Counted from the first letter of the stretch, positions 44,225 through 64,000 are shown. The stretch: DNA of 64,000 nucleotides from Candidatus Woesearchaeota archaeon (GCA_043803105.1 JAZDKJ010000008.1:1-64000); one strand, 5' to 3'. The notes: a model not told the origin generated them from the letters alone. A program made the numbers and translations.

Positions 44225-45040
44225 ATGATTAGACGCAATCACACTTCTCTGGATAAAATAATCGCTGGAATAGTTCTATACAAAGCACTAGAGCGAAAGT
44301 TTCAACCGAACCAATACAACCTTTACGGAATGACAGAAGTGTCAAGGCAAGGTGCTGTGGGAGACTTTGAAGACACAACAGACCAGTACAAAAGAGCAAA
44401 AATCCTGCAAGCTGCGCAAGAGTTGCCTTCTGAATACCAGGAAAATCTCCTGACAAAAGATTATGTTGCGCAATTGCTTCTAAAATATATGGCTTCAAAA
44501 GAAGGGAAAGGAGCAATGAAAAAGTATGGGCTAAACAAAGAAGATATAAGGCCGGCTGCAGCAAGACTTGAAGAAGGGGTTGTGGCTGCAACGACAAAAG
44601 ATGTCTATCCTTATCCTGTGATGAAGAACATTGAAGATCGGGACAGATACATAAGGAGCATACAGGAGAGCGAGCCAAAACTCTCAGCCTATGATGTTGA
44701 GACAATGTGGGTAAGGCACGAGCTAAGGCACCTCTCTCAAGACGCAAGGTTGCTTGCAAGTGCAAGCACATCGCTTGAAAACAGGCTCTATGTGGAAGCA
44801 GACAACATTGCGGGATTGTTCAGGGAGTATGTAGAAGAGATGCAGCAGGCAACAGGCCATAAAAAAGAAGTGCTCGCTGCAAAGGCAAGAGCAACATTGG
44901 GTCATTACCTTGGAACAAAGGCAGGAATGATGGACGAGCGCGGAACGGAGTACAGCGGAAAGGAAGAGCTTACATCCATAGCAAAAGAACTAGAAGGAAA
45001 GCTTGGAACAGAAGACTACAACACGCTCTTCAACCGGTAA
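44225..45040 (+). CDS. Hypothetical protein with HExxH motif (possible zincin)
   Basis: VRHELRH followed by E..AD. Confidence 0.55.
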   Translation: MIRRNHTSLDKIIAGIVLYKALERKFQPNQYNLYGMTEVSRQGAVGDFEDTTDQYKRAKILQAAQELPSEYQENLLTKDYVAQLLLKYMASKEGKGAMKKYGLNKEDIRPAAARLEEGVVAATTKDVYPYPVMKNIEDRDRYIRSIQESEPKLSAYDVETMWVRHELRHLSQDARLLASASTSLENRLYVEADNIAGLFREYVEEMQQATGHKKEVLAAKARATLGHYLGTKAGMMDERGTEYSGKEELTSIAKELEGKLGTEDYNTLFNR

Positions 45041-45863
45041 TTCTTAAGATTGCGAAGATTCTCAGGATTGTGAGCAGAGGGAATACTATAACCAGAAGGT
45101 AGAGCAGGAACAGAACAAAGTGGCTTGACAAGAGAAAGCCGAGAATAACGAGCACGGCGATTATAACAAGGCAGGGCAGGAAAGTCAAAAGAATCTTCTT
45201 GTAGTCCTTGAAGCCGACAATAAAAGTCTTCTGAAAGATCTTCTTTAGGCCAGTCTTCCTTAGCAAAGGATAAGAAACAAAAGCAAAATATGCTAAGGCA
45301 AAAGTGCAGATGATGAAAAGCACAGTGACAAAATCCCTGCTCACAAGGGGGAAGATACTAAAGGTTGCGTAAACCGAAAGCTTGACCCAGGTGTAGATAA
45401 AGCAGTAAAACAAGGAAAGCCATATGATGTTAACCGCAAGGAACCGAAGCAAATAACTTGCCTTGGTCCTGCGGTCAACGACTCTGTTGCAGAAGAGCCA
45501 TACAAGACCTTGAAAGACACAGTAAACAACCATAGCTAGGGCCATCAACAAGAGCAGGAGCTGGAGGGCTTTGGTGAAGTAATAGGCAAACTCTGGCTTG
45601 TTGAGCATCACATCAACCATTGAGTTCTGATTTGCAACAAGGCCTGAGACATTGCTTATATCAGTCTGTGCAGCATTCATGAGAAAACCGATGTAATCGA
45701 AAATCCTCTGCTGGATGATTGCGAAGGTGAGGAGAAAGGTCATGAAAAAAAGGATGTCTGAGGCAACTGAAAGAATAAAATAAAGCTTGTTTGAAAGCGG
45801 CAGAAGGAAGGTTTGTTTAATATCCTTCAAAATAGTGTTTCTTAATATTTGGGGCTTACGCAT
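45030..45863 (-). CDS. Polytopic membrane protein (paralog of 54199-54954)
   Basis: About 6 TMs; VYCVFQGLVW and YLLRFLAVNIIW match VYSLFQGLVW and YFKRFSLLNLCW. Confidence 0.75.
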   Translation of the reverse strand: MRKPQILRNTILKDIKQTFLLPLSNKLYFILSVASDILFFMTFLLTFAIIQQRIFDYIGFLMNAAQTDISNVSGLVANQNSMVDVMLNKPEFAYYFTKALQLLLLLMALAMVVYCVFQGLVWLFCNRVVDRRTKASYLLRFLAVNIIWLSLFYCFIYTWVKLSVYATFSIFPLVSRDFVTVLFIICTFALAYFAFVSYPLLRKTGLKKIFQKTFIVGFKDYKKILLTFLPCLVIIAVLVILGFLLSSHFVLFLLYLLVIVFPLLTILRIFAILRITG

Positions 45864-48800
45864 GTGATCTCCAGGTTTTGGTCGACAACATTCTTTGCTT
45901 CATCTTCTGCATAAACCCTTGCATAGTCACCGCAGCTGTAGATGGTAGAACCTTGATAAACAGATGGTGTTGCAGCGCTAGGAGGTGTCACCGGAATGTC
46001 TGAAGTGCCGAAATAGATAGTCTTCAATGACTTATCTTCCTGCACGAATATGTTAACAGCATAAGTTACATCGCTCAAAAGATTCCCCTTGAAGTTTGTT
46101 GTCTTGTCAACAGTTACAGACTGGCCTGTGTTGACTGCAGTAAAGACAACTTTCAATATTTCTGGAGCTTTGGTATCAACCTGGGAGCCTGTAGTCACTG
46201 CAGAAGCGGTGGTACAAGGCTCATCCTTACATTCGTCTCCACAACAGTATTGGTTCGGAGAACAAACACCTTTTGGATCGTTCTGGCTGTAAGCAAGCCC
46301 ATTGCAAACACAATAATCTGTCAGTATAGTCTTGCCGTCGTTAACGCAGCCTACAGTATCGACACACTTCTTATCAACGCAATACTTGCCTTCCTTACAA
46401 TCACGAGGTGTGGTAGAAACTATTGCTGTGGTCTCGCAATAACAGTCAAACTGATTTGCCTTTGTTGAAGGGTCAGTGCACCTGCCTGCAGACAGAGCAC
46501 CTTCACCGCACTGGGCATTAAATGGAATTACCTGCTCCTGCTTTACACTGTTGTAAACAGTGACTTGTGTTGAGGGAATCCAGCTCGCACCAGCTTGGGT
46601 TGCGTCAAGTATCTGGAAGTGCGCCTTCCAGGTCTGCTTTCCTGAACTTGCGGAACAGGCATCTGCGGTTGAAGCGGACTGATAAGAAACAACATACCAA
46701 CCCTTTGTGTTAGCTGCAGAGGGTGTGTTCGTTCTAAAACGTATCCTGACACCTGCAGTTTCCACTATCATATTCTCAAATTTTGCACGGCTTCCACGCT
46801 GTTGATTGGAACTGCAGGCAGAATCACCACAGATCTGATACATCACTGTGTCGCCATCCTTGGAAAACAATATGTAAAAAGGGAATAGCGTCTTGTCAAT
46901 ATTTGCTGCAATAATATCACCTTCAGTAACAACATCGTTTGGATTTGCGCCTGTACCTGTTGATACAACAGGCTTTGTGGATGAGGCACCAGTAAAATCA
47001 TCAGCCTTTATCTCCCTTAACTTAATTGAGTCAGTGTACCTTCCCTTAGAGTTCAGGAAGATATAATCAGGATACTGAAAGATGTCGCGACCGTTCTGGT
47101 TCTCAATCCAGACCTTCAAGTACTTTGTGTACTCGCAGTTGTTCTGGCCGCTGCAAGACTGGCAATTCAAGCCTTGGCAGTTGGCCGCATCAGGGATCTG
47201 CTGCTGAATATCAACGCTAAACTGCATCATACTGCCAACCCTAAACGCATCTGCACCATAAGGATATTCAGGAGCTGGCTTGTTTTTGAACATAGCCCAG
47301 TTCTCAGTGCCAACGCCAACTGAGCAGCGGTACATCAATGAACCAACATCCCACTTGCAGATAGCTGGAGGCTTGCCACCAACCTGGCCAATCTTACAGG
47401 TGGATTTGTCAATCACAGTCTTCTTGTTGTTATCAATATAAGTCCACTCAAGGATTGCAGTATCGTACCTCACCTGCAAGTCCTGCTTTGTCTTATAGAT
47501 ATCTCCCTGGTCAAAAATCATCTCGCCCGGAAGCAGGTGATTGGGCAGGCCCTCAATAGTAATCTCCTGAGGCTTTCCAGGGCAATCACAACGGCCATTT
47601 TCAAAACCATCCGAGCTACTGCAGGTAAAACCATCAGAGCAGATAAGCCTCAACCTGATATTATTCAATTCAGCTCCAGCAACAAGGCCTACACCAAAAT
47701 GATAATTCCAAGTAGTAAGTCCGCTCGGATTGCTGACAGGATTAAACGACATGAAGCGGCGCTCGCAAGGATAAAGGAAGCCCTCACTCTTGATTGGTGC
47801 AGAGAACTGCTGGTTCAAGAGACCGGAAACATCAAGGTCCCAAGTGCCTGTGAAAGCAAAAAGGCAGACTGAGTGGACAAGCTTCTTATCAGCAAACATG
47901 GACTGCCACAAAGCAGAATTGCCATAACGGCCGGCAACAGAGCGCTGAACACCTTCGCCGGCACTCGTCAAGGCACCAAAAAAGTTGCCGATAGAGCCGC
48001 CAGAAGCAGAGCGCTGGCCAGACAGGCTGTACTTTTCTGTAACGCAGCTGATAAGGTCATAGATAAAGTCACAGACGTAAACAGTTAGCACTGCCCTACA
48101 AGTGCCTGAACTGCCGTCACCAGTAACGAGAATGGTCTGGAAACAATTCTTTATCGCAGTCAACATATTCTTGTAAAGGGTAAGGTAGCCTGTGACTGCT
48201 GCAATGCAAGCGCACTGGATGCTTCTTAAAAATCCTGATGTCGGTTCAACAATATATTCACGCTCCTTATGGCCAAGCTTTTCCTGGATGCGGTTGTAAA
48301 GGTCAAGTGCTTGCGTCTCACTAATGGTTCCGCATTTCTCCAAATCCTTCCAAAAAGAAGAACACCATTGGTCAAGGCTACAGCGCTTGATAGAACCTTG
48401 CCTTTGAATCTCTTTGCTAGGAACTGAGAAATAGGCTGTCACATCAGGGTCTAGATTACCTATCCTGAAAGCATTCTCTTTTGTTATTGGGGTATCATCA
48501 GTGGCCTTGGAGTTCTTGTTTGTCAATTCAGCAACCCTCTTAGTCGTCAGCATATAGCCACGATGCACCTGATAGTCTGTGTTGCCAGTCAATTTGTTCG
48601 GCGGAAGGATGCGATAATATATCGTGTCATAATCCTCGCGCAGATTGAGCTGGTCATAAAGGCACTGATTGCTCACCGTGTCAGTATTACCAGAAGTAAG
48701 CCTTCCCTTGTACTTCACTCCAGAATCAATGATATCAGCCTGCACCTGGCCGGCAGGAGAGCAGATGCCAGCCACCTTGTTCCAGGTGACCTGGCATTTA

Positions 48801-51800
48801 ATCGGGTCTTCAGCATTAGCGAGTTCAGTGACCTTAGCTTCGTCCTCAGCGATGACACAGACATTCTCCTTCAACTCGTTCATGACAGCACAGGCAGAGT
48901 TCCACTCGTTCATGTACTCCTGGCCGCAACACTGCGCATTTGGAGGATGAAGCCCAGAACATGAAACCTGGTCAGGGCCTGTGGCGGCAGTCTGCATCTT
49001 CTTGTAATCAGCATAAATCTTCTGGGCTTGGGCTGTGTTTAGGGTGAACTTTTTTGAAATGGAGCTAACCGCGGTTGTTGTTTGACCCATGGCAGCCCTC
49101 AAAGCATTCTCATCCTTGTAAAGGCCTGAGGGTGTCCAACCAGTTGTGCCGTCCACTGTACCATCATTCCAAACTTCAACATTGTTGCCTGTAACCTTGT
49201 ATCTTCTGGAGCCGCCAGCGTCAGCAACGACATACTCGGCCTTGTTCTTGACATCTGCAGGGGTTTTTGGCGACTCAACCCATTTGCCTGAGTTATCCTG
49301 GGAATATGCCTTGTCATTTTCAATCTTATATTTGGTGTAGCCTTCATAGCCGCTAGAAATTGAGTATTCATTGGCATCAAGGCTCATCCCGTTAGCGGTG
49401 CTGGCGACAGCAGCGCAATCACTGCCTTTCTTGAATGTAGTTCCTGGAATAGTCCTCACAGGGTTTTGCGCTATTTTGGTGCGGATATACATCTCCAGAG
49501 TCGGGACGCTCGGGCAGAAAATCCTGTCGCAGATCCAGCGCATGTAGACCTCAAAGTTGAGGCGCTTCTGGATAGCGTCCCTGCATTTGACGCACTGGTT
49601 GTTCAGCTCAGTCTTTGGCTTGTCTCCCTGTATAGGATAGACCTGGTCACACTTGTTTATCTGGGCAACATCCTTGTCAAAACGATCAGCAGGACTTAAC
49701 TTAGCGACTGCATTGACTGTGCTTATGGCGCTCGCAAACTGGCAGCTCCAACCCTCTTGCAGCCAGAAATAAAAGTCAATAACCCAGGAAGCAGCACAGC
49801 CGTAAAAAACATATTCCTTGATCGTGTTAAGAGGTTTTAGGACAGCATCGATAATGGTGATTGTGGCATTCAGGACATCAATGGAGGCCTTCAAGAAAGC
49901 CTCAGGGATCATGTTGCTAGGTATGCGCCTGTCAATAGTGACCATAACATCAAAACAATGCCTCTGCTGGAGCGTGTAGTTGTAATTCGGAAGCTCAAAG
50001 TCAACGACAAGCATCAAAGGCACCTTTACGCAGCCCAGGCCAGGCACACCGCACTGGCCTATACGGTGATTGCTAAGGTTTGCTTCCTTGTCAAGCATGG
50101 TCATGTTCTTGCCGTGCGAAGGATCCTGGGGCAAGACCTTAAGCATAACATAACCCTGCCTCTTGTTTGTGCTTTTGACAATGTCAGAAATTACCCAGCT
50201 CTTATCCCAGTCCTTTTCCTCTGCAGCGCTCAGGGGCCTATTACGCAAATAGATATCGCGGATAGTGCCATTATTCCAACCGCCCTGCCAGGAGATGTTG
50301 ACAGAAAGCCCTATCATATCCATTCCCTCAATCATCAACCTGGGAGTTAGCATGTTGGGAGTGGGCTTGGAAATGTCGACCTTCCACCAGCTGCCAAGCC
50401 CGCATTGGGCAAGGATAACTGAGCTTTTCTTCTCATCCTTCAATCCTGCATCATCAATCGCGACAATCCTTACATCATTCCTCCAAGCGTCAGCAACCTT
50501 GATTTCCATAGCAGAGACTGGAAGGTTGCGATTCGTGGTTGAGTCAAAATGGTCAACCGCAACATCACGCCTAAGCTTGACATCAACCTTGAAATTACCC
50601 TTGTCATCAGTCTTGGTCATTGAAGATGGGCTGGTGTCATTGTTGATAAAGACAGCAATAGTGGCTTTTTCACTTACCTTGCCTATCAAGGTAACATCAG
50701 GAATGTAGGTCGGAGAGATCATGCCCAGATTGTCCTCAAGAATCTTAGGCGCTTGTGTGTCAAAGAGCGTCTGGTTCTCGAAAACAGCAACATTGCCTGC
50801 GCGGTCTCTTGCTTCAATCTTCAGATTATTTATGCCCTGTGATAATGTCACTGACTCTGAAAAATCACCGCTCAGGTTAATGCTCTTTTCAAAAATGTGC
50901 TGCTTGCAGGAAAGATTCACCTCGCTTGGAGTCTTGTTGTATACAGACCCGCCAGCCATGGTGCGTACAACAAGGTCCTTGGACTTGAGGCCTTCATTGC
51001 AATTGGTATCCACCGCAGCAACATTATAGGTATAGGCCTTGCCTGAATCAATAGTGGCGCCAACATCAACAAACACAGTCTCTTTGGTTGTGGTGATACG
51101 CTTTTGGTTCCTGAAAACAGAATACATCAGGAGATCCTCTTCCTTGTTCTTGCTCCAGACAAGCTTGACAGAATTCGTAGCAAGCGAACCATTAGTCAAG
51201 CCACTAACCTGGCTAGGAGCAAGAAGGTCTTTAGCAGAAGAGACAGTAAAAGTGATGGCAGAAAGCTCATTGACAGAGCCGTCAATCTGCATGGATTGTT
51301 GTGTTGCAACCCTGGAGACATTCTTTATTGTGAGCACAGGCGGGTTAGAGTCAAGAGTCACCTTATACTCCTTGACAGCAACATTGCCGACAAGATCCTT
51401 TGCTTCCAGGCGAACCAGGTTAGTCTGGTCAGAGAGCTCCAGGCCAATCACCTTGAAGCTGCCTGCAGAATCAGCCTTTGCCCAACGCTGGAGCTGATTG
51501 TTGACAAAAACGTTAACGTCTGCCAATGGGTCAGTCTTGCCAGAAAAGGTCAGCAGGCGGTTGTTAAAGAACTCTGGGATTGAGGCTTCAATTGAAGGAG
51601 GCGTAAGGTCAGCGCCTGCGATAAAGGTTCTAGCAGAAGAATTTATGCAATTCTTGTGTGTGTCACACATGCCGACCTTAAAATAATAAATTGTTCCATT
51701 TGAAACAGCAAGGGTGAGGGAATGCTGCTTTGCCAGATTACCATCATTTGCCATGAACCCGAAGCCTTGGGTGGTGCCGTAGAAAACAGCACTTGTTGAA

Positions 51801-52249
51801 GGCTCATCAGTTGCCCATTCCACAACAGCCTGTGCATCAGACGGAAGTTTCAAGGTAATGTTTGAGGCGAGCCTTGGCGGAACCCTATCAGGGGCTTGGG
51901 TTGTTTTCAGGCTAAAAGGATTTCCTGCATTCCTTGTGGTAATGGAAAAACCAGAGGCATTTGTCGAAACAAGCTCGTAAAAATACTGAGTGCTGTTCTG
52001 CAAGCCTTTGATGATGACAGTATGCTTCTTCAGAAGCGAGCTGTTTTCAGCTGACTGATCAAGATTTGTCGATGTTAGGCCAAAATTCACTTTTGCTGCA
52101 GCAGGCTCGGTAGTTGTCCATGCAATGGTGGCGTTGTTGTAAGAGATTACAGGCCTTGCATCATAAGAGACCTCAAGCCTTGCCAGGGCAAATGGGAAAA
52201 GTATCATAAGCTCTGCGATCCACAATGCCATCAGCTGGTTCATCCTCAT
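45842..52249 (-). CDS. Giant secreted protein (2135 aa): FN3/Ig-like repeats plus Cys-rich helical domain
   Basis: Signal peptide; WTTTEP/WATDEP FN3-like units; EAKDLVGN/EARDRAGN Ig motifs; many Cys. Confidence 0.85.
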   Translation of the reverse strand: MRMNQLMALWIAELMILFPFALARLEVSYDARPVISYNNATIAWTTTEPAAAKVNFGLTSTNLDQSAENSSLLKKHTVIIKGLQNSTQYFYELVSTNASGFSITTRNAGNPFSLKTTQAPDRVPPRLASNITLKLPSDAQAVVEWATDEPSTSAVFYGTTQGFGFMANDGNLAKQHSLTLAVSNGTIYYFKVGMCDTHKNCINSSARTFIAGADLTPPSIEASIPEFFNNRLLTFSGKTDPLADVNVFVNNQLQRWAKADSAGSFKVIGLELSDQTNLVRLEAKDLVGNVAVKEYKVTLDSNPPVLTIKNVSRVATQQSMQIDGSVNELSAITFTVSSAKDLLAPSQVSGLTNGSLATNSVKLVWSKNKEEDLLMYSVFRNQKRITTTKETVFVDVGATIDSGKAYTYNVAAVDTNCNEGLKSKDLVVRTMAGGSVYNKTPSEVNLSCKQHIFEKSINLSGDFSESVTLSQGINNLKIEARDRAGNVAVFENQTLFDTQAPKILEDNLGMISPTYIPDVTLIGKVSEKATIAVFINNDTSPSSMTKTDDKGNFKVDVKLRRDVAVDHFDSTTNRNLPVSAMEIKVADAWRNDVRIVAIDDAGLKDEKKSSVILAQCGLGSWWKVDISKPTPNMLTPRLMIEGMDMIGLSVNISWQGGWNNGTIRDIYLRNRPLSAAEEKDWDKSWVISDIVKSTNKRQGYVMLKVLPQDPSHGKNMTMLDKEANLSNHRIGQCGVPGLGCVKVPLMLVVDFELPNYNYTLQQRHCFDVMVTIDRRIPSNMIPEAFLKASIDVLNATITIIDAVLKPLNTIKEYVFYGCAASWVIDFYFWLQEGWSCQFASAISTVNAVAKLSPADRFDKDVAQINKCDQVYPIQGDKPKTELNNQCVKCRDAIQKRLNFEVYMRWICDRIFCPSVPTLEMYIRTKIAQNPVRTIPGTTFKKGSDCAAVASTANGMSLDANEYSISSGYEGYTKYKIENDKAYSQDNSGKWVESPKTPADVKNKAEYVVADAGGSRRYKVTGNNVEVWNDGTVDGTTGWTPSGLYKDENALRAAMGQTTTAVSSISKKFTLNTAQAQKIYADYKKMQTAATGPDQVSCSGLHPPNAQCCGQEYMNEWNSACAVMNELKENVCVIAEDEAKVTELANAEDPIKCQVTWNKVAGICSPAGQVQADIIDSGVKYKGRLTSGNTDTVSNQCLYDQLNLREDYDTIYYRILPPNKLTGNTDYQVHRGYMLTTKRVAELTNKNSKATDDTPITKENAFRIGNLDPDVTAYFSVPSKEIQRQGSIKRCSLDQWCSSFWKDLEKCGTISETQALDLYNRIQEKLGHKEREYIVEPTSGFLRSIQCACIAAVTGYLTLYKNMLTAIKNCFQTILVTGDGSSGTCRAVLTVYVCDFIYDLISCVTEKYSLSGQRSASGGSIGNFFGALTSAGEGVQRSVAGRYGNSALWQSMFADKKLVHSVCLFAFTGTWDLDVSGLLNQQFSAPIKSEGFLYPCERRFMSFNPVSNPSGLTTWNYHFGVGLVAGAELNNIRLRLICSDGFTCSSSDGFENGRCDCPGKPQEITIEGLPNHLLPGEMIFDQGDIYKTKQDLQVRYDTAILEWTYIDNNKKTVIDKSTCKIGQVGGKPPAICKWDVGSLMYRCSVGVGTENWAMFKNKPAPEYPYGADAFRVGSMMQFSVDIQQQIPDAANCQGLNCQSCSGQNNCEYTKYLKVWIENQNGRDIFQYPDYIFLNSKGRYTDSIKLREIKADDFTGASSTKPVVSTGTGANPNDVVTEGDIIAANIDKTLFPFYILFSKDGDTVMYQICGDSACSSNQQRGSRAKFENMIVETAGVRIRFRTNTPSAANTKGWYVVSYQSASTADACSASSGKQTWKAHFQILDATQAGASWIPSTQVTVYNSVKQEQVIPFNAQCGEGALSAGRCTDPSTKANQFDCYCETTAIVSTTPRDCKEGKYCVDKKCVDTVGCVNDGKTILTDYCVCNGLAYSQNDPKGVCSPNQYCCGDECKDEPCTTASAVTTGSQVDTKAPEILKVVFTAVNTGQSVTVDKTTNFKGNLLSDVTYAVNIFVQEDKSLKTIYFGTSDIPVTPPSAATPSVYQGSTIYSCGDYARVYAEDEAKNVVDQNLEITCVSPKY

Positions 52250-54954: not shown

Positions 54955-57887
54955 ATAGTATTCACTTCCGCTTTCTTTGAGGTAGAGGATGTTGCTGCAG
55001 CCTGGGCTTGGGGGACATAGCCTGTTGGAGAACCCTTGAATTCAGTGATAATATTACAGACCTCACTAGTCTCTACACCGTCTGCGCTGAATACAGGCTC
55101 CTTAAATTGTATGCAAATCTGTTTGTAGAGGTTGTTAGAGAACTGGACAATCATCGCGCTTCCAGTCTTGGAAAATGTCTTGCCTGGCTGCACATTAATG
55201 TCCTGCTTGAACAAAGTGGTTTGCTTTCCAGGGCCAATCAATACAACATTGAAATTCATCTCCTGCACAACGCTCTGGCCGCTCTTAGAAGGCTTTTCCG
55301 GGTTCTTGACAAAAAGGCTGATCTTGTAGAAAAACTGCTGCTGATAGCCAGAGGCATTAGTGAATTCTATAAGTTGGCGGTCTGCCTCAACATGAGCACC
55401 GATGCCGACCATGTTTGCTCCGTCAGGGATAGTGATATACATGGTGCCTTCAGGAGGCCTTGAAATATAGTGCTGGCAAGCAGTCTCTTCCCAATTGCCG
55501 CTTATGACCTGGCCCAAGACGCTGTAAACAAAGAACTGGTCAGTAGCCCTTCTCCAAGCGCTGTCTTCCATGCCGAGCAAAATGGATAGAGCCCTTCCAC
55601 CCTGAGCAGCCTGATAGACCTGGTTTATTGAGGTGCCGATCATCTGGTTATTGACAAATTGGCTGTAGGTATACTTGTCGCCATTCTGCATAGTGACATA
55701 CCATTGGCCGTTATCGCTTTGGGTGTAAGGCCTGAATTCACCATCGGGACCTTTTATTTGCATTGAGTCAAAAATATCGGTCTCGCCAGGCATTGGCTTT
55801 GCCTCAACCTTCTGATTGTTGATTACGGTAAAGTATTGTCCGCTTTTTGTTTCCAAAACATACAGACCCAAGTAATCATTATAGTAGCTGTTTTTCTCGA
55901 CAAAATCACTCCCCAGATTAATCCATCCTTTATCTTTATCCGCACCTTTAGGGAGGTACTGTGCTGTATAAGTTTCGCTTGTCGCTGAGGCTTTTGCAAG
56001 GTATATAACATCTCCATTGTCACTTGCCCATTCATAATTGCCGTCATAACCAGAGCGTTTCCAGGTGTTTGCGGTGGAATCATAAGACAAGCCGAGCTGG
56101 CTGACGACTGTTTGCTGGTCAGTAGTTAGTGCCAGTGGTGTAGAAGCTTCGACCAAGGCCTTTGCCTTTGCGTCAAAAGCTGCTTTGTCCATGAAAGAGT
56201 TCTTGATATCATTATAATTGGTTCCAGTATATTTTTCTGCTTCCAAAACACCCAAAATATTTCCTTGATTGTCGGTCTTGAGCACTGAACCATCATCAAA
56301 GATCTGATATCTCACATTTGGCTCATCCGCCCTAGTGTAATAAATTCCATCGCTAGATGCGGTAAAGCCATCAAAAGCGTAGGCAGAGGCTTGAGGTTGG
56401 GCTGCTGCTCCTGGCTGAAACGAATTGAGCAAAGCAGAATTCCCTGTTGCATCCTTCACATAGATATTGCCTTTTGAGTCAACAGAATCCACCTGAAGCC
56501 AGCCTTTATCGGTAAGAACATAGCCAGCCTCATTTTCCTGCGAATACTGGTATGTCTTACCATTCAAAAACAAGGATGTTTGGCCATTTTGTGTGATAAT
56601 CGTGCCGGTTCCCATAACATAAACTTCTACCGGGCCTGCGGTTTGTATTTCGTTACCCTGTCCGTCGAGAAAGTGAAATACTCCATCCGAGCCTGCATAA
56701 AATTTTTCTGTTCCTTGTGGAGAAACAACCCCTGGTGGGAGAGAAGGTGTCGGCAATGGCACATAAGTGCTTATTGTTCCGGGAAAGGCTGCTTTCAGCT
56801 GATCTTCAGTTTGATAGGCAGATTTGTGCCATTGACCGTTGATGTCCTTCCAGAACAACAGAGTAGTTCCTGTCTTGTCAGTCCCTTTACCATACTCAGT
56901 AGGTGGTGAACTTTTGTAAGAGCTTGTACCCCAGTCAACAATGAAAGCTGCTGTGGCTGGGGGATTGTACTGACTTTGCCAACCTTGCAAGGCAAATGCA
57001 TCCTGGTCATAAGCTTTCAACATTTTTCCTGTTTTGTCATCCTTATATTGATATTCCCAATGTTGTCCGTTGAATGTATAACTGCCCCAGGTTGTACCCA
57101 CATCCGGAACCAACTGGCCTGAAGTTCCGCTTGTTGATTGTGAGGGCGCAGTGTCAAGCCCTGAATTCGTTGCCCTTGAACTAACCAAAAGTTTGGCCAG
57201 GTCGGGTGCAACGTTAGGATAGATACCGGCAGCATCCATTTTGTTGATTGCATCTGGATTCGCCGGGTTTTTCTGATTGTAACTGAACAGGACTTCTGCA
57301 AATTTTTTATCTTCGCCTGCCTGTCTAAACTGAGTGGTGTCAATAATTTCTGCAACTTTTTGCGCTCCAGCATCAATGTTGTATTGTGCCTGCTTGAGCT
57401 GCTCCACTGAGTAGCCTCCATTGCTTCCTGAGTCTTTAGAGTAGATCTGCAAGAAACCGATCTCACTGTTCCCATTAAGCGGCTTATTCACTCCATTTGA
57501 TTCAACAATAATAAGGCGTTCCAAAAAAAGTTGGTCCTTGTATGGTTGCAAGGTATAGTAATTCTGGTACGCCTTTTGGACAGCCTCTTTCAAACCCGGA
57601 TTATTTGCGTACATACTTTCAATCCGGGAAAGAATCTTCTGATTATTGTAAGGAGTATTTCCAGTGACCTTGAGCATCAGACCTGTTGGAACATTTGCTT
57701 CGTCCGACAGCCGGACATTATTTTGGTCGAAGTACATAGCCCCAAGGCTCAAAATAAAGAACGCCAAGACAAACAAGGCAGCTTTCTGCTGGGTGGGGTG
57801 CTCTCTCTGGATGGATCTCTTCACATCGAGCTTGGCTGATTTCACTAGGTCAAGGAGGAACATTGATCGCTTTGGGATCTTTTTCAT
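54951..57887 (-). CDS. Membrane-anchored surface protein with SLT/lysozyme-like transglycosylase domain
   Basis: N-terminal TM; IIVES, GFLQI, YNIDAG and SYN motifs in SLT order and spacing. Confidence 0.7.
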   Translation of the reverse strand: MKKIPKRSMFLLDLVKSAKLDVKRSIQREHPTQQKAALFVLAFFILSLGAMYFDQNNVRLSDEANVPTGLMLKVTGNTPYNNQKILSRIESMYANNPGLKEAVQKAYQNYYTLQPYKDQLFLERLIIVESNGVNKPLNGNSEIGFLQIYSKDSGSNGGYSVEQLKQAQYNIDAGAQKVAEIIDTTQFRQAGEDKKFAEVLFSYNQKNPANPDAINKMDAAGIYPNVAPDLAKLLVSSRATNSGLDTAPSQSTSGTSGQLVPDVGTTWGSYTFNGQHWEYQYKDDKTGKMLKAYDQDAFALQGWQSQYNPPATAAFIVDWGTSSYKSSPPTEYGKGTDKTGTTLLFWKDINGQWHKSAYQTEDQLKAAFPGTISTYVPLPTPSLPPGVVSPQGTEKFYAGSDGVFHFLDGQGNEIQTAGPVEVYVMGTGTIITQNGQTSLFLNGKTYQYSQENEAGYVLTDKGWLQVDSVDSKGNIYVKDATGNSALLNSFQPGAAAQPQASAYAFDGFTASSDGIYYTRADEPNVRYQIFDDGSVLKTDNQGNILGVLEAEKYTGTNYNDIKNSFMDKAAFDAKAKALVEASTPLALTTDQQTVVSQLGLSYDSTANTWKRSGYDGNYEWASDNGDVIYLAKASATSETYTAQYLPKGADKDKGWINLGSDFVEKNSYYNDYLGLYVLETKSGQYFTVINNQKVEAKPMPGETDIFDSMQIKGPDGEFRPYTQSDNGQWYVTMQNGDKYTYSQFVNNQMIGTSINQVYQAAQGGRALSILLGMEDSAWRRATDQFFVYSVLGQVISGNWEETACQHYISRPPEGTMYITIPDGANMVGIGAHVEADRQLIEFTNASGYQQQFFYKISLFVKNPEKPSKSGQSVVQEMNFNVVLIGPGKQTTLFKQDINVQPGKTFSKTGSAMIVQFSNNLYKQICIQFKEPVFSADGVETSEVCNIITEFKGSPTGYVPQAQAAATSSTSKKAEVNTI

Positions 57888-58516
57888 TTGTTCACCTTGA
57901 AGACTGCAGGCATCCAGATGTCTTTTTTTCTGTATTTCACATTCTGGCTTTTAAACAAGTCTTCAAAAGGCTTCAATTTTTCGTAAGGAACAATAATGGA
58001 AGATGGGCCTATTCTTTCTGCGTGCAAAACCCTAACCAGACCTTGCGACCGAGAAATATAGGTTTTTCCCTTGTAACGCTTTTGGGAAATATACCCCTCA
58101 AGTGCTCTGGCTAATCTGTCTCTTTTGCTCTTGTCAGGTCCAAAATTAAAATTAATTATTATGAAGGGTTCCAGCAGAAGTTTTTCTGCCCTTACAGTCG
58201 GAATATTGCCATAGATGACAATGCCCTCCTTAAGAATAGTTTCAACGAAATTTCTGTCCAAACCTTCAAAGTTTTTCTTGGAAAAAACCATCTGAACAGT
58301 CTTTTCATATTTTGCTCCCAAATCCTGAGAAATACTGAACATCTTTTTCTCGTCACTTGAACCAATTTTATCAAGTAATACCAGTACATCGATGTCAGAC
58401 CTTTTATCTGCGTCTCCCCTGGCAACACTTCCAAACACTACAACAGCCCTGATACTATCAAAATCGCTTGCCTTTTTTGCTAATTCAAACACCAAATCTC
58501 TAAATTCCTTCTGCAT
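57884..58516 (-). CDS. MNT nucleotidyltransferase antitoxin with extra C-terminal domain
   Basis: VFGSVARGDADKRSDIDVLV; ATG at 58516 (MQKEF). Confidence 0.85.
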   Translation of the reverse strand: MQKEFRDLVFELAKKASDFDSIRAVVVFGSVARGDADKRSDIDVLVLLDKIGSSDEKKMFSISQDLGAKYEKTVQMVFSKKNFEGLDRNFVETILKEGIVIYGNIPTVRAEKLLLEPFIIINFNFGPDKSKRDRLARALEGYISQKRYKGKTYISRSQGLVRVLHAERIGPSSIIVPYEKLKPFEDLFKSQNVKYRKKDIWMPAVFKVNK

Positions 58517-58943
58517 TTTCGTGATATTTTTCTTGCGAAAACCCCATTTTTGAGCTTTTCGTGATATTTTTCTTGCGAAAATCTTTAACAGTTTTTTCAC
58601 ATATCTCAAATATAAACGCAGCCAATTCCTTTGCTTTCTGCAGGTTTTCTCCATTGATTTTGCCACCGTAAAGCTGACCTGGCCTGACCTTATTTTCGAG
58701 GTCCTGAAATTTGGACCATACACTCATTGTTTCTTGTCCGAAAATTACTTTGTTTTGCTCAAGTACTCTCCTGACATCCTGGTGCTTATTTATATGAATA
58801 CCAAACAAAACAGCACAAGATTCAATGGCATGAAACGATGCCTCGAAATATGAATTGATCCTAGTCATGGGTGAGTTATCACTGTTCTCAGCATCCTTTC
58901 TGAACAAAAGATATTTTTTCTCATGGATTTCGAATGATGACAT
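58500..58943 (-). CDS. HEPN-like toxin
   Basis: YFEASFHAIE, NKHQDVR, RPGQLYG; adjacent to the MNT gene. Confidence 0.7.
   Translation of the reverse strand: MSSFEIHEKKYLLFRKDAENSDNSPMTRINSYFEASFHAIESCAVLFGIHINKHQDVRRVLEQNKVIFGQETMSVWSKFQDLENKVRPGQLYGGKINGENLQKAKELAAFIFEICEKTVKDFRKKNITKSSKMGFSQEKYHENAEGI
58516..58581. repeat. 26-bp direct repeat of an imperfect palindrome (2 copies, 40-bp period)
   Basis: ttttcgtgatatttttcttgcgaaaa at 58516-58541 and 58556-58581. Confidence 0.85.
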
Positions 58944-58992: not shown

Positions 58993-61900
58993 TCATGTTG
59001 TTGTTGCAGCAGCCTTCGGCTTTGCAGCAGGCTGAGTTGTGACCTTCTCGAGCTCTTTGCACATATCGTTAGCTGGCTTGAACAAATTCTTGATATTGTT
59101 GAAAGTGTTGGAGAGATCAACAATCACCTTTGAAAACTCTGCCACAAACTTCTGGGCAACGCAGAGGAAATGGCCCTGTGGATTTGTTGTCACAAGAGGG
59201 GTGCAGATGAGCTGGGTGATGCTGAAGACCATGGAGAAGGGATCAGAGAAAATGGTATAGATGTAATTGCCCAATTGCTTGAAGGTGTTTGCGAAAGGTA
59301 TTATCTGGAAAATCTCACCAAAGATGAATTTGCACTCAAGATAAGACTTCTGGTCCTCGCAGACCTTCAATGGAATCCTTTGGTTGGTGCTCTGCTGCAA
59401 GCAAACACCGTAGTTGCATTGGATCTGGCGCCACTGCTGCAATTTGTCGATAATGCCAGGAAGACAACCAGTGGCAAGGCTTAAGACAAGGCTATCCTTC
59501 GGGCTTTGAGGCCAGGGAGCTGACTTGAAGCCGTACTTGTCAAGGAGATTTATTTTCTGGTTGGAAAAATCCCATGTGCCAAGGTTAATGAGGCTGCCGT
59601 GCTGAGAACCTGAGGTTAGGTCACTAAAACTCTTGATATAACCATTATACCAGCTGCCCCACAAAGTAACGTCACAACTCACCATCATGCAAAACTTGTA
59701 GACTGAACCTGTCCAGGTAGTCTTGATCTTATCATTGAAATCAACGCCGAAACGCCATGATGTCGCGGCTGGCTGTGCTGCAGTGGTGGTTTTGGCAATG
59801 ATGTTCAGAGCTTGTCCAATCATGTTACCATAATAGACAATCTGGTTCCAGGTCTTGATTATAGAACACATGGTCTTTGCAAAACTCATGAACTTCTCCA
59901 AAGTGCTAATGAAGCTGAGCTTCACAAATGCGCTGTTCTTCACATCCTCAATTTTCTGCTTAGCCTCAGAAGTGAACTCTCCCAGAGGAAGGTTGTAGAA
60001 AAGCACGGTGACAGTAGCATTCTCTATTTCAGGGTTTTGGACAACAAAAAAGTTCTGTCCAGAAGAAACCTTTGACATAATGGTTAGAGGGCAAGTGAAC
60101 TTAAGCTGTGAAATCTTCATTGCTGTGGCCTTTAGAGTCACCTTAAGGAAAGGATCTCTGCTTCCAGGACCATCATTGAAGAGGCTAATATCACTGATGA
60201 AATCCATAGAATTGTTTGCAAGGCTAACACACTTTCCTTTGTCAAGGCTGATGCCCAAAGTGTCAGCACCGCTAAAGCCCGCAACCAGATGGACGTCACA
60301 GAAAACTCTCTGCTCAATAAGGGTGGTAACCTGTCTGTCAATCTTGTCTGGAGAGCAAGTAACCTCAGAAGTCCAATAATTGGGATTGGTCTCATTCTTT
60401 ATACCCTGCACAGAAACCATTACAGAAACAGTCACCTTGTTGTTTACAAAATCCTTGAAAGTGAAGTAAACAGGAGCCTTGAAAGGACCAGAACGGTCAA
60501 TCGGAGAGCTGTCCCAGACACATTCCCAGATTGTGCCTGTAATCAGTGAGCAAGCACCCTGAAGCCTTGAATCAGTGCTTATGACACGGGAAAAATTAGC
60601 AGAAGCTGTAACTTGCGAAGCGTCGCTAAGATTGGCACGGACTGCAAGCTTATCACCCTTAACAGTGTAGTTGACTCCCGGAACAACAAGAGAGCCGTGA
60701 ACAGTATTGATAACGATGCTCCTGACCTGGACAGGTGATGTGTCAACCTTAACAGTAATTGATTTTGCAGAATCTGCCTTATTGCCGAGGTCATCTGAAG
60801 AATCAAGGCTAACTACCACATCAGCCTCTGTACCTGTAGGAGCAGAAACAAGCCTGTTGTACCAATAGCATGTGTAAGAGCCAGTGCAATTGTCAGCCTG
60901 CTGCACACCCAGGTCAAGGCCTGAGAGGTCCAGGAAAATGTTGTGGTTCACCAGATTGCCTGCATTCTCCTGCACCTCAGCGATAAAAGTAGCATTGTGT
61001 CCAACAATCCATTGGCCATTCAACTGACCCATATTAGTGCGAATAGCTGTAACAACAGGGCCCTGGTTGTCAAAGGTCAGCTGCTGCAAGCTAATGGACA
61101 GAGGGCCAATAGAATTGCCTGCATTGTCGCGGCCGTAAACTTTTATAGTGGGCGTCTTGGTCTGGGAGAGCTGCACATTCAAGTTGAAGCGGACTACAGT
61201 ATTATCATCTACGACAGAAACGCTAATGGGACTCAAGTTGCCTGACTGGCCGTTAATGCCTGAGATGTCTGCTTTAATCGAAGACTGGAAAAGATCTGTA
61301 CCAGAAATATTAACTATCAAAAAGGACTGTATTGCAGAAGAGCCAACAAACTGCAACAGCAATGCATTGTCAGCACGATAGAGCCTCGCTGACCTGATTG
61401 AAGGAGCAAGCTTGTCAACAGTAAAGGAATCACAGCCAGCCCCTGACACTTGGTCAAAGCGGTCAGTAACCTTGCAGCAGATCCTTGACAATCCTGAAAT
61501 ATCAGTAACTGAAAGCTTGAAATTAGAGGATATGGAGCATTGCGAAGGGTCTGAGGGCTCAATCATTTTCAGGAGCGGGCCAGAAAAGTCATCCCGAAAA
61601 AACTCTATCTTCTTTATGCCTGAGCACTTAGAGGTATCGCCTTCGACATCAGCATAGTCTTCAGCAACAGAGTCAACAGTTATGTTCACACCATTAGTCA
61701 GATGCGGTGAGACAGAGATGGACTTAACAACAGGAGCCAAGAGATCTGTCGTTACGTAAACAGCCTCTGAACGCATCATCTTTCCAGAATCATTGAGGAG
61801 CTTTACCTGGTAACTGACTGTGCCAGAACGATAACCAGTCTCATAATACTTGCAGTTAAAAGCTCCACCAGAACCTGTGCAGGAATTAAACCAGAAAGAA

Positions 61901-62148
61901 TTTGCCTGGACCTGGCTTCGATTAATGTCTGCATCATTATCGATCTGGGCATCAACATCAATGGTCAGATTATCAAAATATTTCCTGTAGCCGTGCTTGG
62001 GAGCATTCTCAGACTGGGTATAAATGCCATCCTTCCCGGAAATGCTGTTGACCCGAAGGAACGAGCCTGCAAGGGCAGAAGTAAAACAAAATGGCATGCT
62101 TATGACAAGCACAATCAACCACAATGCTACCGAATGGTTCAAACTCAT
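58993..62148 (-). CDS. Large secreted Ig-repeat protein (1051 aa) with Cys-rich helical C-terminal domain
   Basis: Signal peptide; GRDNAGN/SDDLGN/KDFVNN Ig motifs; C-terminal Cys pattern shared with the 2135-aa protein. Confidence 0.85.
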   Translation of the reverse strand: MSLNHSVALWLIVLVISMPFCFTSALAGSFLRVNSISGKDGIYTQSENAPKHGYRKYFDNLTIDVDAQIDNDADINRSQVQANSFWFNSCTGSGGAFNCKYYETGYRSGTVSYQVKLLNDSGKMMRSEAVYVTTDLLAPVVKSISVSPHLTNGVNITVDSVAEDYADVEGDTSKCSGIKKIEFFRDDFSGPLLKMIEPSDPSQCSISSNFKLSVTDISGLSRICCKVTDRFDQVSGAGCDSFTVDKLAPSIRSARLYRADNALLLQFVGSSAIQSFLIVNISGTDLFQSSIKADISGINGQSGNLSPISVSVVDDNTVVRFNLNVQLSQTKTPTIKVYGRDNAGNSIGPLSISLQQLTFDNQGPVVTAIRTNMGQLNGQWIVGHNATFIAEVQENAGNLVNHNIFLDLSGLDLGVQQADNCTGSYTCYWYNRLVSAPTGTEADVVVSLDSSDDLGNKADSAKSITVKVDTSPVQVRSIVINTVHGSLVVPGVNYTVKGDKLAVRANLSDASQVTASANFSRVISTDSRLQGACSLITGTIWECVWDSSPIDRSGPFKAPVYFTFKDFVNNKVTVSVMVSVQGIKNETNPNYWTSEVTCSPDKIDRQVTTLIEQRVFCDVHLVAGFSGADTLGISLDKGKCVSLANNSMDFISDISLFNDGPGSRDPFLKVTLKATAMKISQLKFTCPLTIMSKVSSGQNFFVVQNPEIENATVTVLFYNLPLGEFTSEAKQKIEDVKNSAFVKLSFISTLEKFMSFAKTMCSIIKTWNQIVYYGNMIGQALNIIAKTTTAAQPAATSWRFGVDFNDKIKTTWTGSVYKFCMMVSCDVTLWGSWYNGYIKSFSDLTSGSQHGSLINLGTWDFSNQKINLLDKYGFKSAPWPQSPKDSLVLSLATGCLPGIIDKLQQWRQIQCNYGVCLQQSTNQRIPLKVCEDQKSYLECKFIFGEIFQIIPFANTFKQLGNYIYTIFSDPFSMVFSITQLICTPLVTTNPQGHFLCVAQKFVAEFSKVIVDLSNTFNNIKNLFKPANDMCKELEKVTTQPAAKPKAAATTT

Positions 62149-64000
62149 GTTATCTTTGGAGCCAAAAGCTGCCTGTACGAATTGGAATAATCGCCTATCC
62201 TGCTAATCTGGTCAAGGTCTTCTATAACGCGGTCCTGCTCTGGAACATCAGCCAGGTCGACCTCTATCACGTAAAAGGTTATCTTCTTCTTGGAAAGGTC
62301 AGAAAATGTATAGTTAGCTACGATACCGCCAACAGGAGCAGGGGCATCTATTGTCATAAGTTCCTGAGGGACATAGAAACAATTGCTTGTCAAGAGTGAG
62401 TTTTCGCACCGCTTTTGAGGCCTGAAAATAATAGGCTGGTTCAAAAGCAGGCTAGCCTGGACAGAATAGGCACCGGGCGCAAGAGAAATCTCCTGTGGTG
62501 AATTGTTGAACTGCACAAGGAGAGAGTATTGTTCCTCACCAAGGGTTCCTAGCCTTTGCAGGTTCAAGGTGCCCCACTCGTCATTATCAAGGCCAACAGG
62601 ATTATCCCGCAACACCCATTTGCCAGCAGACTTCACAAGCTTATATTGCTGGACAGAAAGCTCAAGTGTAACCATTGGAACAAGCTCGAAAGTAAGAGAA
62701 TCCTGCTTTCCAATCTCTGTTGACAAGAACTTTGACTGCGAGACAAAACCTTCAGAAAGCACAGAAACCACACCGCCTAAACAGACAGGGAACTGGGCTT
62801 TAATGATACCGGATGAGGTCTTGCCAAGCGAGCAGCTTTCCTCAGCACAGCTGTAAGTAATCTGGGCTGCGTCGACAGGTGATTTATCATTTGCATTTTT
62901 CACAGCAATCGTGATGTTTCCTGAGTTTCTCTTGTCAGGATCACAAAACATGGAGGATTCTGAAGGCACAATACTGGACAATGGAACATAGGTGGTGTTG
63001 AGAGGCTCGTTTGCCCGGATGTTGCCTTCAAGAAAAAACTGGAATATGTAACCGCGATTATTCAATGCCTTAGGATCACTGATTGCCACAAGAACAGGAA
63101 ATGAGACATCATAAAGGAAATTATACCTTTGCACTCCAATAAGACTCACAATGTTGGATGAGGCAGACTCGTGACCACAGACATCGCCGTTGCAGTTAAG
63201 GCTAAAGTAAATCGGCCAGACAGGAAGGTAATTGAACTCGACAGCAAGGCTGGGAAAGGTCTTTTCTGAACGGACAAGCATTCCACTATTGTAAAGGGTT
63301 TCCCTGAAAGCATCTCCTGTTATAACAACAGGATGGTAGTTCATTGATTGGTAGACCTGAAGAGCGGGAATGTCGCGCACAAGGAGGTCTTGCACAAGAG
63401 ACTTAACCTTGGATTGGGACCAGAACTTGCCAGAACCAAACTCAAAATCGGTAGCGGCCATTGGGGGAAGCTTGCTCTCGTCAACTCCAGAATAGCCAAC
63501 AATAAGGTTGAGCAGGTCCTTTTCGAGGAACTTGTAATGAGCTTCCAATTCTGTAATGACTGAAGCCTGCTCATAAATCGACCTTAGGTCTACGGGAATC
63601 CTGAGGAAGAACTCATTCATATCATGCGAATTCCCATCCTTGGTTATCTTCAAAGGATAGTTCACGAAGAAACCAACATCCTTGCTGTAGACACTCGTTG
63701 TTGTCTTAATAGGACCAGACTGTTCAATTGTAAAACCCTGGAAAAGTGAGCTTGAGGCAAGGCAGTCAGCAAGATGAGAGTTCATGTATTCGTCAAGTTG
63801 GCCTTCAATAGATGGCTCGCCTTCGCTCCTGTAAAGATGGGGCCGATTGTAAGAGAACTCGCAGTTCATTGTGCAGGCATTATCACTCTTGAGAAAAAAC
63901 CAATAAGGAGAAACCAAACCTGAGCCTGGGACAAACTCAACAGCAGAAGCACTAGTGGGCTGCAGAGGATTTGTCAGCAAGCCAGATTGCATGGGGTTGA
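62145..64000 (-). CDS. Pilin-like large protein, paralog of 52246-54183 (5' end outside window)
   Basis: YNFLYDVSFPV...GYIFQF matches YHFTYDITYPV...GYLFAF; frame open to the window edge. Confidence 0.8.
   Translation of the reverse strand, partial: NPMQSGLLTNPLQPTSASAVEFVPGSGLVSPYWFFLKSDNACTMNCEFSYNRPHLYRSEGEPSIEGQLDEYMNSHLADCLASSSLFQGFTIEQSGPIKTTTSVYSKDVGFFVNYPLKITKDGNSHDMNEFFLRIPVDLRSIYEQASVITELEAHYKFLEKDLLNLIVGYSGVDESKLPPMAATDFEFGSGKFWSQSKVKSLVQDLLVRDIPALQVYQSMNYHPVVITGDAFRETLYNSGMLVRSEKTFPSLAVEFNYLPVWPIYFSLNCNGDVCGHESASSNIVSLIGVQRYNFLYDVSFPVLVAISDPKALNNRGYIFQFFLEGNIRANEPLNTTYVPLSSIVPSESSMFCDPDKRNSGNITIAVKNANDKSPVDAAQITYSCAEESCSLGKTSSGIIKAQFPVCLGGVVSVLSEGFVSQSKFLSTEIGKQDSLTFELVPMVTLELSVQQYKLVKSAGKWVLRDNPVGLDNDEWGTLNLQRLGTLGEEQYSLLVQFNNSPQEISLAPGAYSVQASLLLNQPIIFRPQKRCENSLLTSNCFYVPQELMTIDAPAPVGGIVANYTFSDLSKKKITFYVIEVDLADVPEQDRVIEDLDQISRIGDYSNSYRQLLAPKIT

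Follow-up and report, generated by a model that had tools for sequence, protein, structure and literature searches.

Two anciently duplicated modules of giant surface proteins in Woesearchaeota: a candidate membrane-anchored complex for contact with other cells

Woesearchaeota and their relatives, abundant archaea that are uncultured and have small genomes, are believed to live in dependence on other cells. How they might hold or exploit their partners is a question raised by a cluster of very large predicted surface proteins in a stretch of 64,000 nucleotides, hereafter the window, from Candidatus Woesearchaeota archaeon (GCA_043803105.1 JAZDKJ010000008.1:1-64000). It makes up the first 64 kb of a contig of 170,786 bp in an archaeal genome (G000) of 1.56 Mb, assembled in 13 contigs and 96.5% complete. 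The cluster extends from 45030 to about 64241, its last 241 nt lying beyond the window end, and is on the minus strand throughout. With a probability of roughly 50%, we propose that it encodes a membrane-anchored, multi-protein cell-surface complex, built in two anciently duplicated modules and used for contact with other cells. Such contact is probably the role of the operon, a function which we infer from the presumed host-dependent lifestyle, from a divergence faster than that of housekeeping proteins and from wall-related add-ons.

The cluster contains nine open reading frames (ORFs), of which seven are core genes and two form an inserted nucleotidyltransferase/HEPN-like pair. In the order of transcription, the core genes are as follows.

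pilB: 62145..64000 in the window with a start at about 64241 beyond it, minus strand; 698 residues, putative class III-signal anchor of module B (full frame read from the contig)
giantB: 58993..62148, minus strand; 1051 residues, predicted secreted protein of module B
mid: 54951..57887, minus strand; 978 residues, N-terminal membrane helix and conserved C-terminal domain
tm6B: 54199..54954, minus strand; 251 residues, about six transmembrane segments, FQGLVW motif, module B
pilA: 52246..54183, minus strand; 645 residues, putative class III-signal anchor of module A
giantA: 45842..52249, minus strand; 2135 residues, predicted secreted protein of module A
tm6A: 45030..45863, minus strand; 277 residues, about six transmembrane segments, FQGLVW motif, module A

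The co-orientation and tight packing described in an earlier note on this DNA are confirmed by these coordinates and by the gene junctions. Overlaps of 4 nt were found at four of them (pilB/giantB, nucleotidyltransferase/mid, mid/tm6B and pilA/giantA) and an overlap of 22 nt at giantA/tm6A, while two others have gaps of 15 and 49 nt. The ATGA stop/start overlaps, as at the pilA/giantA junction, suggest coupled translation. None of the seven core proteins gave a Pfam match above threshold, or an NCBIfam or PHROG match above chance level, pilB being represented in the Pfam and NCBIfam scans by the 617 residues encoded within the window, without its N-terminus. Homologues of the cluster proteins are labelled Woesearchaeota or Nanoarchaeota, in agreement with the lineage assumed in the earlier note.

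Three paralogous pairs had been recognized in the earlier note, and as judged from sequence profiles all three hold. The pilin-like proteins PilA and PilB are 23% identical over 435 columns by BLASTP (E 4e-23), and comparison of their profiles with hhalign (probability 100%, E 4.4e-85, 600 columns) indicates full-length homology. Pairwise similarity between the two giants is weak (E 7e-4); profiles of their orthologues (11 and 9 sequences) matched with a probability of 98% and an E of 2e-13 for GiantA 1-824 against GiantB 1-781. This homology begins at the very N-terminus, about 800 N-terminal residues of GiantA being homologous to GiantB. The two Tm6 proteins share 98 columns including the FQGLVW motif (BLASTP, E 3e-5), and hydropathy analysis gave about six hydrophobic segments for each, as expected of the proposed six-transmembrane pair. 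The C-terminal domain of Mid represents a fourth family, with probabilities of at most 1.7% against the Pil, Giant and Tm6 profiles in hhalign.

Conservation was studied in 61 genomes of the same order (G000-G060) and in a phylum-level sample of 201 good genomes, all from one class. When PilA was used as query, a clustered protein database yielded 68 proteins, all annotated as 'hypothetical' and none with a Pfam domain. The PilA family was detected in 52/61 relatives at E<=1e-10 and, with a profile at E<=1e-20, in 183/201 genomes of the class (142/154 from the same order and 41/47 from the rest). For the GiantB family an exhaustive search returned 1138 representative clusters at E<=1e-3, 402 of them at E<=1e-30. 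Twelve regions were fetched from relatives and examined together with that of G000. The full or near-full seven-gene order was present in seven genomes (G000, G001, G011, G026, G031, G039 and G044); it was rearranged in G017, G018 and G019 and cut by contig ends in G024 and G057, and the G008 site carried module A alone. Among named public genomes, the best 80 loci of 295 confirmed pattern matches (300 tried) were scored with seven family hidden Markov models. The giantA gene lay directly after pilA in all of the 72 loci with at least 1 kb of downstream sequence, and tm6B lay directly upstream of pilA in 43/63. Where the flank sufficed, most loci also had a tm6A orthologue on the downstream side of giantA. 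The full seven-gene order was recovered in 16 of the 27 loci having at least 9 kb upstream and at least 8.5 kb downstream, most exceptions consisting of module A alone. The duplicated module of a pilin-like gene preceding a giant, as postulated in the earlier note, is thus borne out by the 72/72 pairing. A lack of synteny in relatives had been named there as evidence that would speak against the proposed apparatus, and synteny is very strong. A 2644-residue open frame resembling a natural pilA-giantA fusion (G229/L078) proved to be an artefact, its junction being a masked run of N read as X.

In a tree of Pil sequences from 13 genomes, the PilA sequences (13 rows, support 100/99) and the PilB sequences (9 rows, 99/99) were each found on one side of a branch, which indicates that the duplication is older than the split of the sampled families of the order. 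Over one set of four genomes, identities amount to 33-40% for PilA and to 70-73% for FttA, a fast evolution of PilA as expected of exposed proteins. Further sets of this type are present in the genome. A paralogous set on contig 6 (C6:372429-377280, L003) comprises a tm6 gene, a pil gene of 723 codons and a 649-residue partner with a giant-like N-terminal signal, and at the start of contig 12 (C12:1427-15308, L007) a pil-like protein is followed by two Ig-type giants of 2509 and 1222 residues.

These data bear on an alternative in which unrelated surface proteins share a transcript and each acts alone as an adhesin, an enzyme or a transporter-like protein. Such independence would agree with the generic domain content. 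It is difficult to reconcile with the invariable pairing of pilA and giantA, with a seven-gene order kept across many families of the order, with the parallel duplication of the whole set and retention of both copies, or with the ATGA overlaps, and we consider it highly improbable.

How would such proteins be held at the surface? The N-terminus is the best-kept feature of the Pil family. PilA begins with MKRG-QLTVFIILGLAMLLAF (MKRG-QLTVFIILG) and PilB with MLQRKG-QITVFIILGLVLLILF (MLQRKG-QITVFIILG), the hyphen marking the Gly/Gln junction. Both have the short, positively charged leader ending in Gly, with some 20 hydrophobic residues behind it, that characterizes class III-type signals, and the signal reported in the earlier note is therefore real on both proteins. 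The family consensus is KRGQxTVFIIxGI, with Q5, F9 and G13 present in at least 90% of 51 sequences. The 645-residue length and the KRG/Gln signal given for PilA were correct; the second copy, described as '615+' residues, has 698, since its start lies beyond the window. An AlphaFold2 model of PilA, built on a 51-sequence alignment, has a mean predicted local distance difference test (pLDDT) score of 88.8 and a predicted template modelling (pTM) score of 0.58. It comprises a helix (2-29), a low-confidence flexible linker, an alpha/beta region up to about residue 415 and two beta-sandwiches (421-640).

The whole models of PilA and GiantB were compared with the PDB using Foldseek, with 48,161 chains using VIA-align and with BFVD. 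For PilA, the sandwiches alone were matched, by folds of the CnaB, transthyretin and carboxypeptidase-regulatory type, and the alpha/beta domain was unmatched in this whole-model search. The best VIA-align match had a Z of 9.9 over 75 residues, and Foldseek template modelling scores (TM-scores) did not exceed 0.2. The best Foldseek matches in the PDB were SdrD (E 8.3e-7) and SpaA (E 2.6e-5), and VIA-align matched CnaB2 with a Z of 7.6. Tandem beta-sandwich stalks are thus shared with the Gram-positive pilins and the adhesins known as microbial surface components recognizing adhesive matrix molecules, which carry CnaB/Ig-like stalks. The likeness is limited to the fold (TM-score <=0.2); those proteins are bacterial and have an unrelated assembly, whereas no sortase signal is present here.

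The class III-type signal raises the question of whether the Pil proteins, called pilin-like in the earlier note, are pilins. Pilins have tens to a few hundred residues. The Pil proteins, with 645 and 698 residues, are not pilin-sized, and consist of a helix, a linker and three domains instead of one small globular domain. Their size and multi-domain build argue against polymerising pilins and are easier to reconcile with an anchor in the membrane, or at the most with one subunit at a tip. A strict class III-type N-terminal pattern was found in 7 ORFs of the genome, three of them encoding Pil-family proteins of 645-723 residues. In the excerpts of PMC3875500 that we used, the class III-signal Epd pilins of Methanococcus maripaludis, which are EppA substrates, have a basic leader ending in Gly, Gln at +1, Glu at +5 and about 20 hydrophobic residues. 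Both Pil proteins share the leader, the Gln at +1 and the hydrophobic stretch; at +5 both have Phe and not the EppA-type Glu. No Pfam or NCBIfam match to a class III signal or a pilin was obtained at E<=0.1, PilB having been scanned as the part without its N-terminus.

As in organisms with such pilins, the genome encodes a prepilin peptidase, an ATPase and a platform protein. The A24 prepilin peptidase is on contig 5 (C5:54252-54569, 54.4 bits, cut-off 26.5), and a T2SSE ATPase (122.3 bits) lies with two T2SSF platform matches on contig 10 (C10:17550-20049). A VirB4/PilB ATPase was to be sought beyond position 64000 according to the earlier note, and none adjoins the cluster: no such ATPase was found directly beyond 64000, within the cluster or next to it, and VirB4 (PF03135, the type IV secretion family that was searched) was not found in the genome. 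Nor was an ATPase or platform gene found in the 12 regions of relatives or in the 80 loci, which were inspected for the seven core families, the flanks of the 80 loci not being scanned for ATPases. In the order sample, A24 was detected in 58/61 and T2SSE in 60/61 genomes, so that processing of Pil in trans would be possible everywhere. According to the parts of a 2026 survey consulted (PMC13705601), this group has few type IV filament clusters; with T2SSE and A24 near-universal, the genes may simply be dispersed.

An accessory role in a type IV filament has to be weighed, with the Pil proteins as minor or tip pilins in a fibre built by the distant ATPase and platform, and the giant as a tip adhesin. 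The Gly at -1 and Gln at +1, as in EppA substrates, and the near-universal A24 and T2SSE are in line with this proposal, as is the fact that archaeal pilin genes are often unlinked from assembly genes (PMC3875500, excerpts). It is nevertheless improbable in view of the lack of assembly genes in all clusters inspected, the size of the Pil proteins and the flexible linker that follows the first helix in the model, the missing +5 Glu and class III-signal match, and the absence of a small major pilin gene from the operon. Furthermore, the Pil proteins differ from class III-signal pilins in having three ectodomains and two constant partners, a giant secreted protein and a six-transmembrane protein.

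Both giants carry an N-terminal signal peptide, and hydropathy gave no C-terminal anchor in either. In GiantA the N-terminal third is fn3/Ig-like and the long remaining part is rich in Cys; the protein has 66 Cys in all, and GiantB has 27. In Pfam the giants gave sub-threshold Ig/fn3-type matches alone, yet the Ig repeats described in the earlier note find support in the GiantB model, which shows about six beta-sandwich domains. This AlphaFold2 model (77-sequence alignment, mean pLDDT 85.0, pTM 0.48) consists of about six Ig-like sandwiches (17-572), a beta domain (580-706) and a helical Cys-rich bundle (713-1023). The signal peptides of the giants (about 52180-52249 and 62080-62148) are conserved in sequence, including a Pro, with the consensus A.FMI.L....P.Y in the GiantA and GiantB families. 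Such conservation is uncommon among Sec signals, which here might be recognized by a factor of their own, for example Tm6.

Fold searches with GiantB returned generic tandem-Ig arrays, for example titin (E 6.2e-18, TM-score 0.13), with a best VIA-align Z of 10.4. A match to the surface-layer (S-layer) protein EA1 was also recovered by Foldseek (E 3.8e-12, TM-score 0.12), and the PilA sandwich matched SlaB from the Sulfolobus SlaA/SlaB layer with a Z of 9.0 over 80 aligned residues and a root-mean-square deviation of 2.2. In the structural comparison proposed in the earlier note, matches to ordinary S-layer proteins without a predicted interaction would have pointed away from its reading; the matches of PilA and GiantB are to generic sandwiches, and those to SlaB and EA1 are limited to one such sandwich. 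Neither giant matched the S_layer_N or S_layer_C models of Pfam.

These matches speak to the main competing explanation, a housekeeping envelope scaffold, S-layer-like or coat-like, in which the giant would be an outer lattice or spacer and Pil a membrane stalk, with no specific role in host contact. Its near-universal presence (183/201), strict synteny and chromosomal housekeeping context suit a scaffold well, as do the generic structural matches including SlaB and EA1, Ig-like arrays being common in S-layer proteins. On the other hand, these matches cover a single generic sandwich, and the genome has a separate gene of an archaeal S-layer family (PF05124, S_layer_C, 56.7 bits, C6:358511-360934). 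The two non-redundant modules, the six-transmembrane partner, the many Cys and the occasional wall-hydrolase or LysM add-ons are unlike known S-layers. We therefore regard a scaffold as unlikely, although it is the strongest competitor. The S_layer_C protein itself has 808 residues (L003:511-2934), is encoded about 11.5 kb from the contig-6 module and is likely to be the product of the true S-layer gene.

A close parallel for a scaffold is the two-component S-layer of Sulfolobales, which also combines a very large, secreted, sandwich-rich protein (SlaA) with a membrane-anchored stalk (SlaB), the genes of the two reportedly being adjacent. The operon has no sequence relation to this system and differs from it in that its anchor is N-terminal and of the prepilin type, in its duplicated modules, six-transmembrane partners and many Cys, and in the S_layer_C-family gene that the genome has elsewhere.

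For the Tm6 proteins, the best-kept positions among 99 members are a first-helix Asp, the FQGLVW Trp, a Phe and a C-terminal Arg. Structural neighbours of Tm6B in the Atlas are six-transmembrane proteins like GPDPase_memb, UPF0259 and DUF975, with TM-scores of 0.5-0.64, which is below the bar for naming a family there. The predicted likeness is a lead only: Tm6B has no Pfam match to these domains, which are themselves uncharacterized. A tm6 paralogue on contig 2 (C2:71769-87213, L005) adjoins genes for a DsbA-like protein (212 residues) and a GILT/DsbA-like protein (573 residues), with a 3169-residue Ig-type giant a few kb away; the DsbA/GILT-like genes may provide disulfide-forming support for Cys-rich surface proteins. 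The idea, suggested by this neighbourhood, that Tm6 is a DsbB-like oxidase was ruled out, since no cysteine is conserved in the family.

The remaining core protein, Mid, is the place where wall-related domains come into question. It has a single hydrophobic segment (residues 36-54), an SLT-like segment (about 57267-57554), a variable middle rich in Gly, Thr and Tyr, and a conserved C-terminal domain of about 230 residues (about 54954-55670). Orthologues share the C-terminal 200-240 residues or so alone, the N-terminal part being different even in a genome of the same genus. The SLT model (PF01464, cut-off 21.3) scored 18.1 bits (E 0.002) with full-length Mid; in a six-frame search of the genome, the score was 22.4 bits (E 8.4e-5). 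The segment contains ESNG, GFLQ and YNQ-type strings, which may correspond to the catalytic E-S and further motifs of the family. With phmmer, nothing relevant was found among PDB sequences for the 978-residue protein or for the SLT-like segment alone, and a homology search with the SLT-like region recovered Mid itself as the sole match. Two clear SLT ORFs (46.4 and 34.4 bits) are present elsewhere in the genome. Gly, Thr, Asp and Tyr abound in the middle of Mid (55670-57100, residues about 260-740), where 9 of the 10 matches of the protein to the pattern N/D-G-Q/D/S/N are located. Several of these matches are followed by an aromatic residue, which recalls wall-binding repeats and has no Pfam match.

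Orthologues were scanned for wall-related domains. Of 41 Mid ORFs, the 34 that were not cut by a locus end were used. None had an SLT domain at E<=0.001, so that the SLT domain listed in the earlier note, borderline in score and missing from the same-genus orthologue, is not a conserved component. One of the 34 had a LysM domain (47.9 bits, L125) and another a sub-threshold PG_binding_3 match (21.5 bits, L109). For GiantA, the scan covered 19 of 42 ORFs longer than 5.4 kb (the 20 longest minus one with masked bases), and NlpC/P60 was found in one, at the extreme C-terminus (53.9 bits, residues 2082-2208 of 2214, L075). In the GiantB family, where 35 proteins were scanned among the 150 representatives listed, no wall-related domain was found and two had a PDZ insertion. 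Wall-directed modules thus occur rarely and always on variable ends.

Large extracellular murein lytic-transglycosylase proteins (fam00969) are described as typical of Woesearchaeota and Pacearchaeota in the portions of Castelle et al. 2021 used here (PMC8204110), where it is proposed that they bind or degrade the walls of bacteria. The operon resembles them in its lineage and in its extracellular giants; its SLT-like segment differs in being borderline and absent from the 34/34 orthologues scanned. That study also lists lineage-specific families without an assigned function, and those of the operon may be among them.

Taken together, these data suggest the following model of a membrane-anchored complex. 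A protein of 650-700 residues with a class III-type, prepilin-like N-terminus (Gly/Gln) would be exported, probably trimmed by the A24 prepilin peptidase of the genome and retained in the membrane by its hydrophobic N-terminal helix. The next gene, coupled by an ATGA overlap, would supply a giant Sec-secreted protein with an Ig-like sandwich stalk and a Cys-rich head, held at the surface by the Pil anchor, and the six-transmembrane protein would act as a membrane base or as an assembly factor. Module B would add the membrane-tethered Mid, docked through its conserved C-terminal domain and with an N-terminal part free to vary between lineages. The variable ends may then make contact with the envelope of another cell, host or partner, and sometimes bind or cut it. 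The envelope of another cell is the most likely target, because peptidoglycan-related modules are found on variable ends in some lineages, and these wall-binding or wall-cutting domains, although present in few relatives, lend some support to host contact. The genes, their paralogy and conservation, the predicted folds and the signals are what the sequences show; processing, assembly, stoichiometry and function in this model are what we infer. Prediction of a complex between PilB 30-480 and GiantB 574-1039, run without controls, gave 0.73, 0.00 and 0.00, with a median under the mark, and tells neither for nor against binding.

Several observations weigh against this model. Near-universal presence across the class fits a housekeeping envelope structure equally well. 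With Phe at +5, no Pfam match and a size far above that of pilins, processing of the Pil proteins is not assured. The fold matches of PilA and GiantB are generic beta-sandwiches with low TM-scores. Finally, SLT is found in 0/34 Mid orthologues, and wall-related domains as a whole are rare (1/34 for Mid, 1/19 for GiantA and 0/35 for the GiantB family), so that a wall domain may be an occasional add-on rather than a core function.

No description of the operon was found in the literature searched, the supplementary tables of related surveys being outside that search. In the parts of Makarova et al. 2019 consulted (PMC6393860), a DPANN-specific secreted family, cls.004306, is said to be 'often encoded next to' S-layer-like proteins; it may correspond to the Pil family.

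Between giantB and mid, two further genes interrupt module B, and were overlooked in the earlier note.

unmatched ORF: 58500..58943, minus strand; 147 residues, possible HEPN-like partner, an insertion outside the core operon
minimal nucleotidyltransferase (MNT/MntA-like): 57884..58723, minus strand; listed as 279 residues from a GTG, an insertion outside the core operon

The nucleotidyltransferase, which in fact probably starts downstream of the GTG given above, matched Polbeta (49.8 bits, cut-off 26.9) and NTP_transf_2 (39.6 bits, also above its cut-off), and scored 48.4 bits against the NCBIfam MntA equivalog, for which the cut-off is 60. The overlapping 147-residue ORF gave no Pfam or NCBIfam match beyond chance level, including to HEPN models, and its homologue in G001 (2e-57) adjoins a nucleotidyltransferase homologue. 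The pair is similar to MntA/HepT type VII toxin-antitoxin systems in its Polbeta and NTP_transf_2 matches, and differs from them in scoring below the MntA cut-off, in having a partner without a HEPN model and in not being conserved in the operon. Among G000 and the 12 regions, the giantB-mid interval contained nucleotidyltransferase genes in no more than three genomes (G000, G001 and G039, the last having several), and the pair is therefore a lodger rather than a component of the operon. MNT/HEPN genes are also reported from housekeeping contexts in DPANN archaea (Makarova et al. 2019, PMC6393860, in part).

The surroundings of the cluster are those of an ordinary chromosome. On the 5' side of pilB, a strand switch is followed by genes for an MscS channel, a ParA/MinD-type ATPase and Trm1; a convergent gene lies 3' of tm6A, and housekeeping genes in the remaining window include those for FttA, a proteasome subunit and ribosomal protein S8e. 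The G+C content of the cluster (0.41-0.48) is similar to that of the genome. In view of these neighbours, of the genome-like G+C and of core proteins without a PHROG match, the operon is chromosomal and not mobile. On our reading it is vertically inherited. An integrated virus or mobile element encoding receptor-binding or entry proteins might be suspected from the giant Ig-like proteins, from the toxin-antitoxin-like pair and from generic phage tail and baseplate matches in the viral structure library BFVD (TM-score <=0.19). We reject it, because in addition to the PHROG result and the G+C content, no integrase, capsid or replication gene was found within the cluster or next to it, the family occurs in 183/201 genomes, and the paralogue trees group by module and not by transfer.

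Three observations concern other DNA. At 27342-31242 of the window, a 340-residue ORF with collagen triple-helix repeats (50.1 bits) adjoins an 838-residue ORF without a Pfam family. From about 16000 to 26000, G+C is low (0.355-0.40, against about 0.44), and the presence of a PIN-domain gene, a DDE transposase fragment and another MNT-type nucleotidyltransferase raises the possibility of a mobile or defence island in this stretch. In one relative, listed with 6% contamination, a T2SSE match (G015:C56:7097-7600) contains 6 in-frame TGA codons, and this contig may belong to an organism in which TGA is decoded as an amino acid.

In its boldest form, the proposal that the operon serves contact would extend to a hitherto undescribed, class-wide contact organelle of Nanoarchaeia (Woesearchaeales and relatives), with two prepilin-anchored arms, each comprising a giant Ig-like stalk, a disulfide-rich head and a six-transmembrane base of its own, with interchangeable distal modules, and with neither a filament nor a dedicated ATPase. 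We put this forward tentatively, as a possibility that we doubt more than we credit. If true, the LysM, SLT-like and NlpC/P60 modules would determine the partner whose envelope is held or opened, and the organelle would be the long-sought attachment or feeding apparatus of host-dependent archaea. Whatever their function, four families that lack described relatives make up a gene arrangement which ranks among the most conserved in this lineage, and all four are predicted at the surface. If the operon does encode a contact apparatus, its products would offer targets for antibodies and tomography in existing co-cultures, the type of host would become predictable from the variable wall-binding ends, and prepilin-type signals would have been re-used to anchor very large proteins. 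If it encodes a housekeeping coat, it would tell us how the cell envelope is built in an entire class of archaea.

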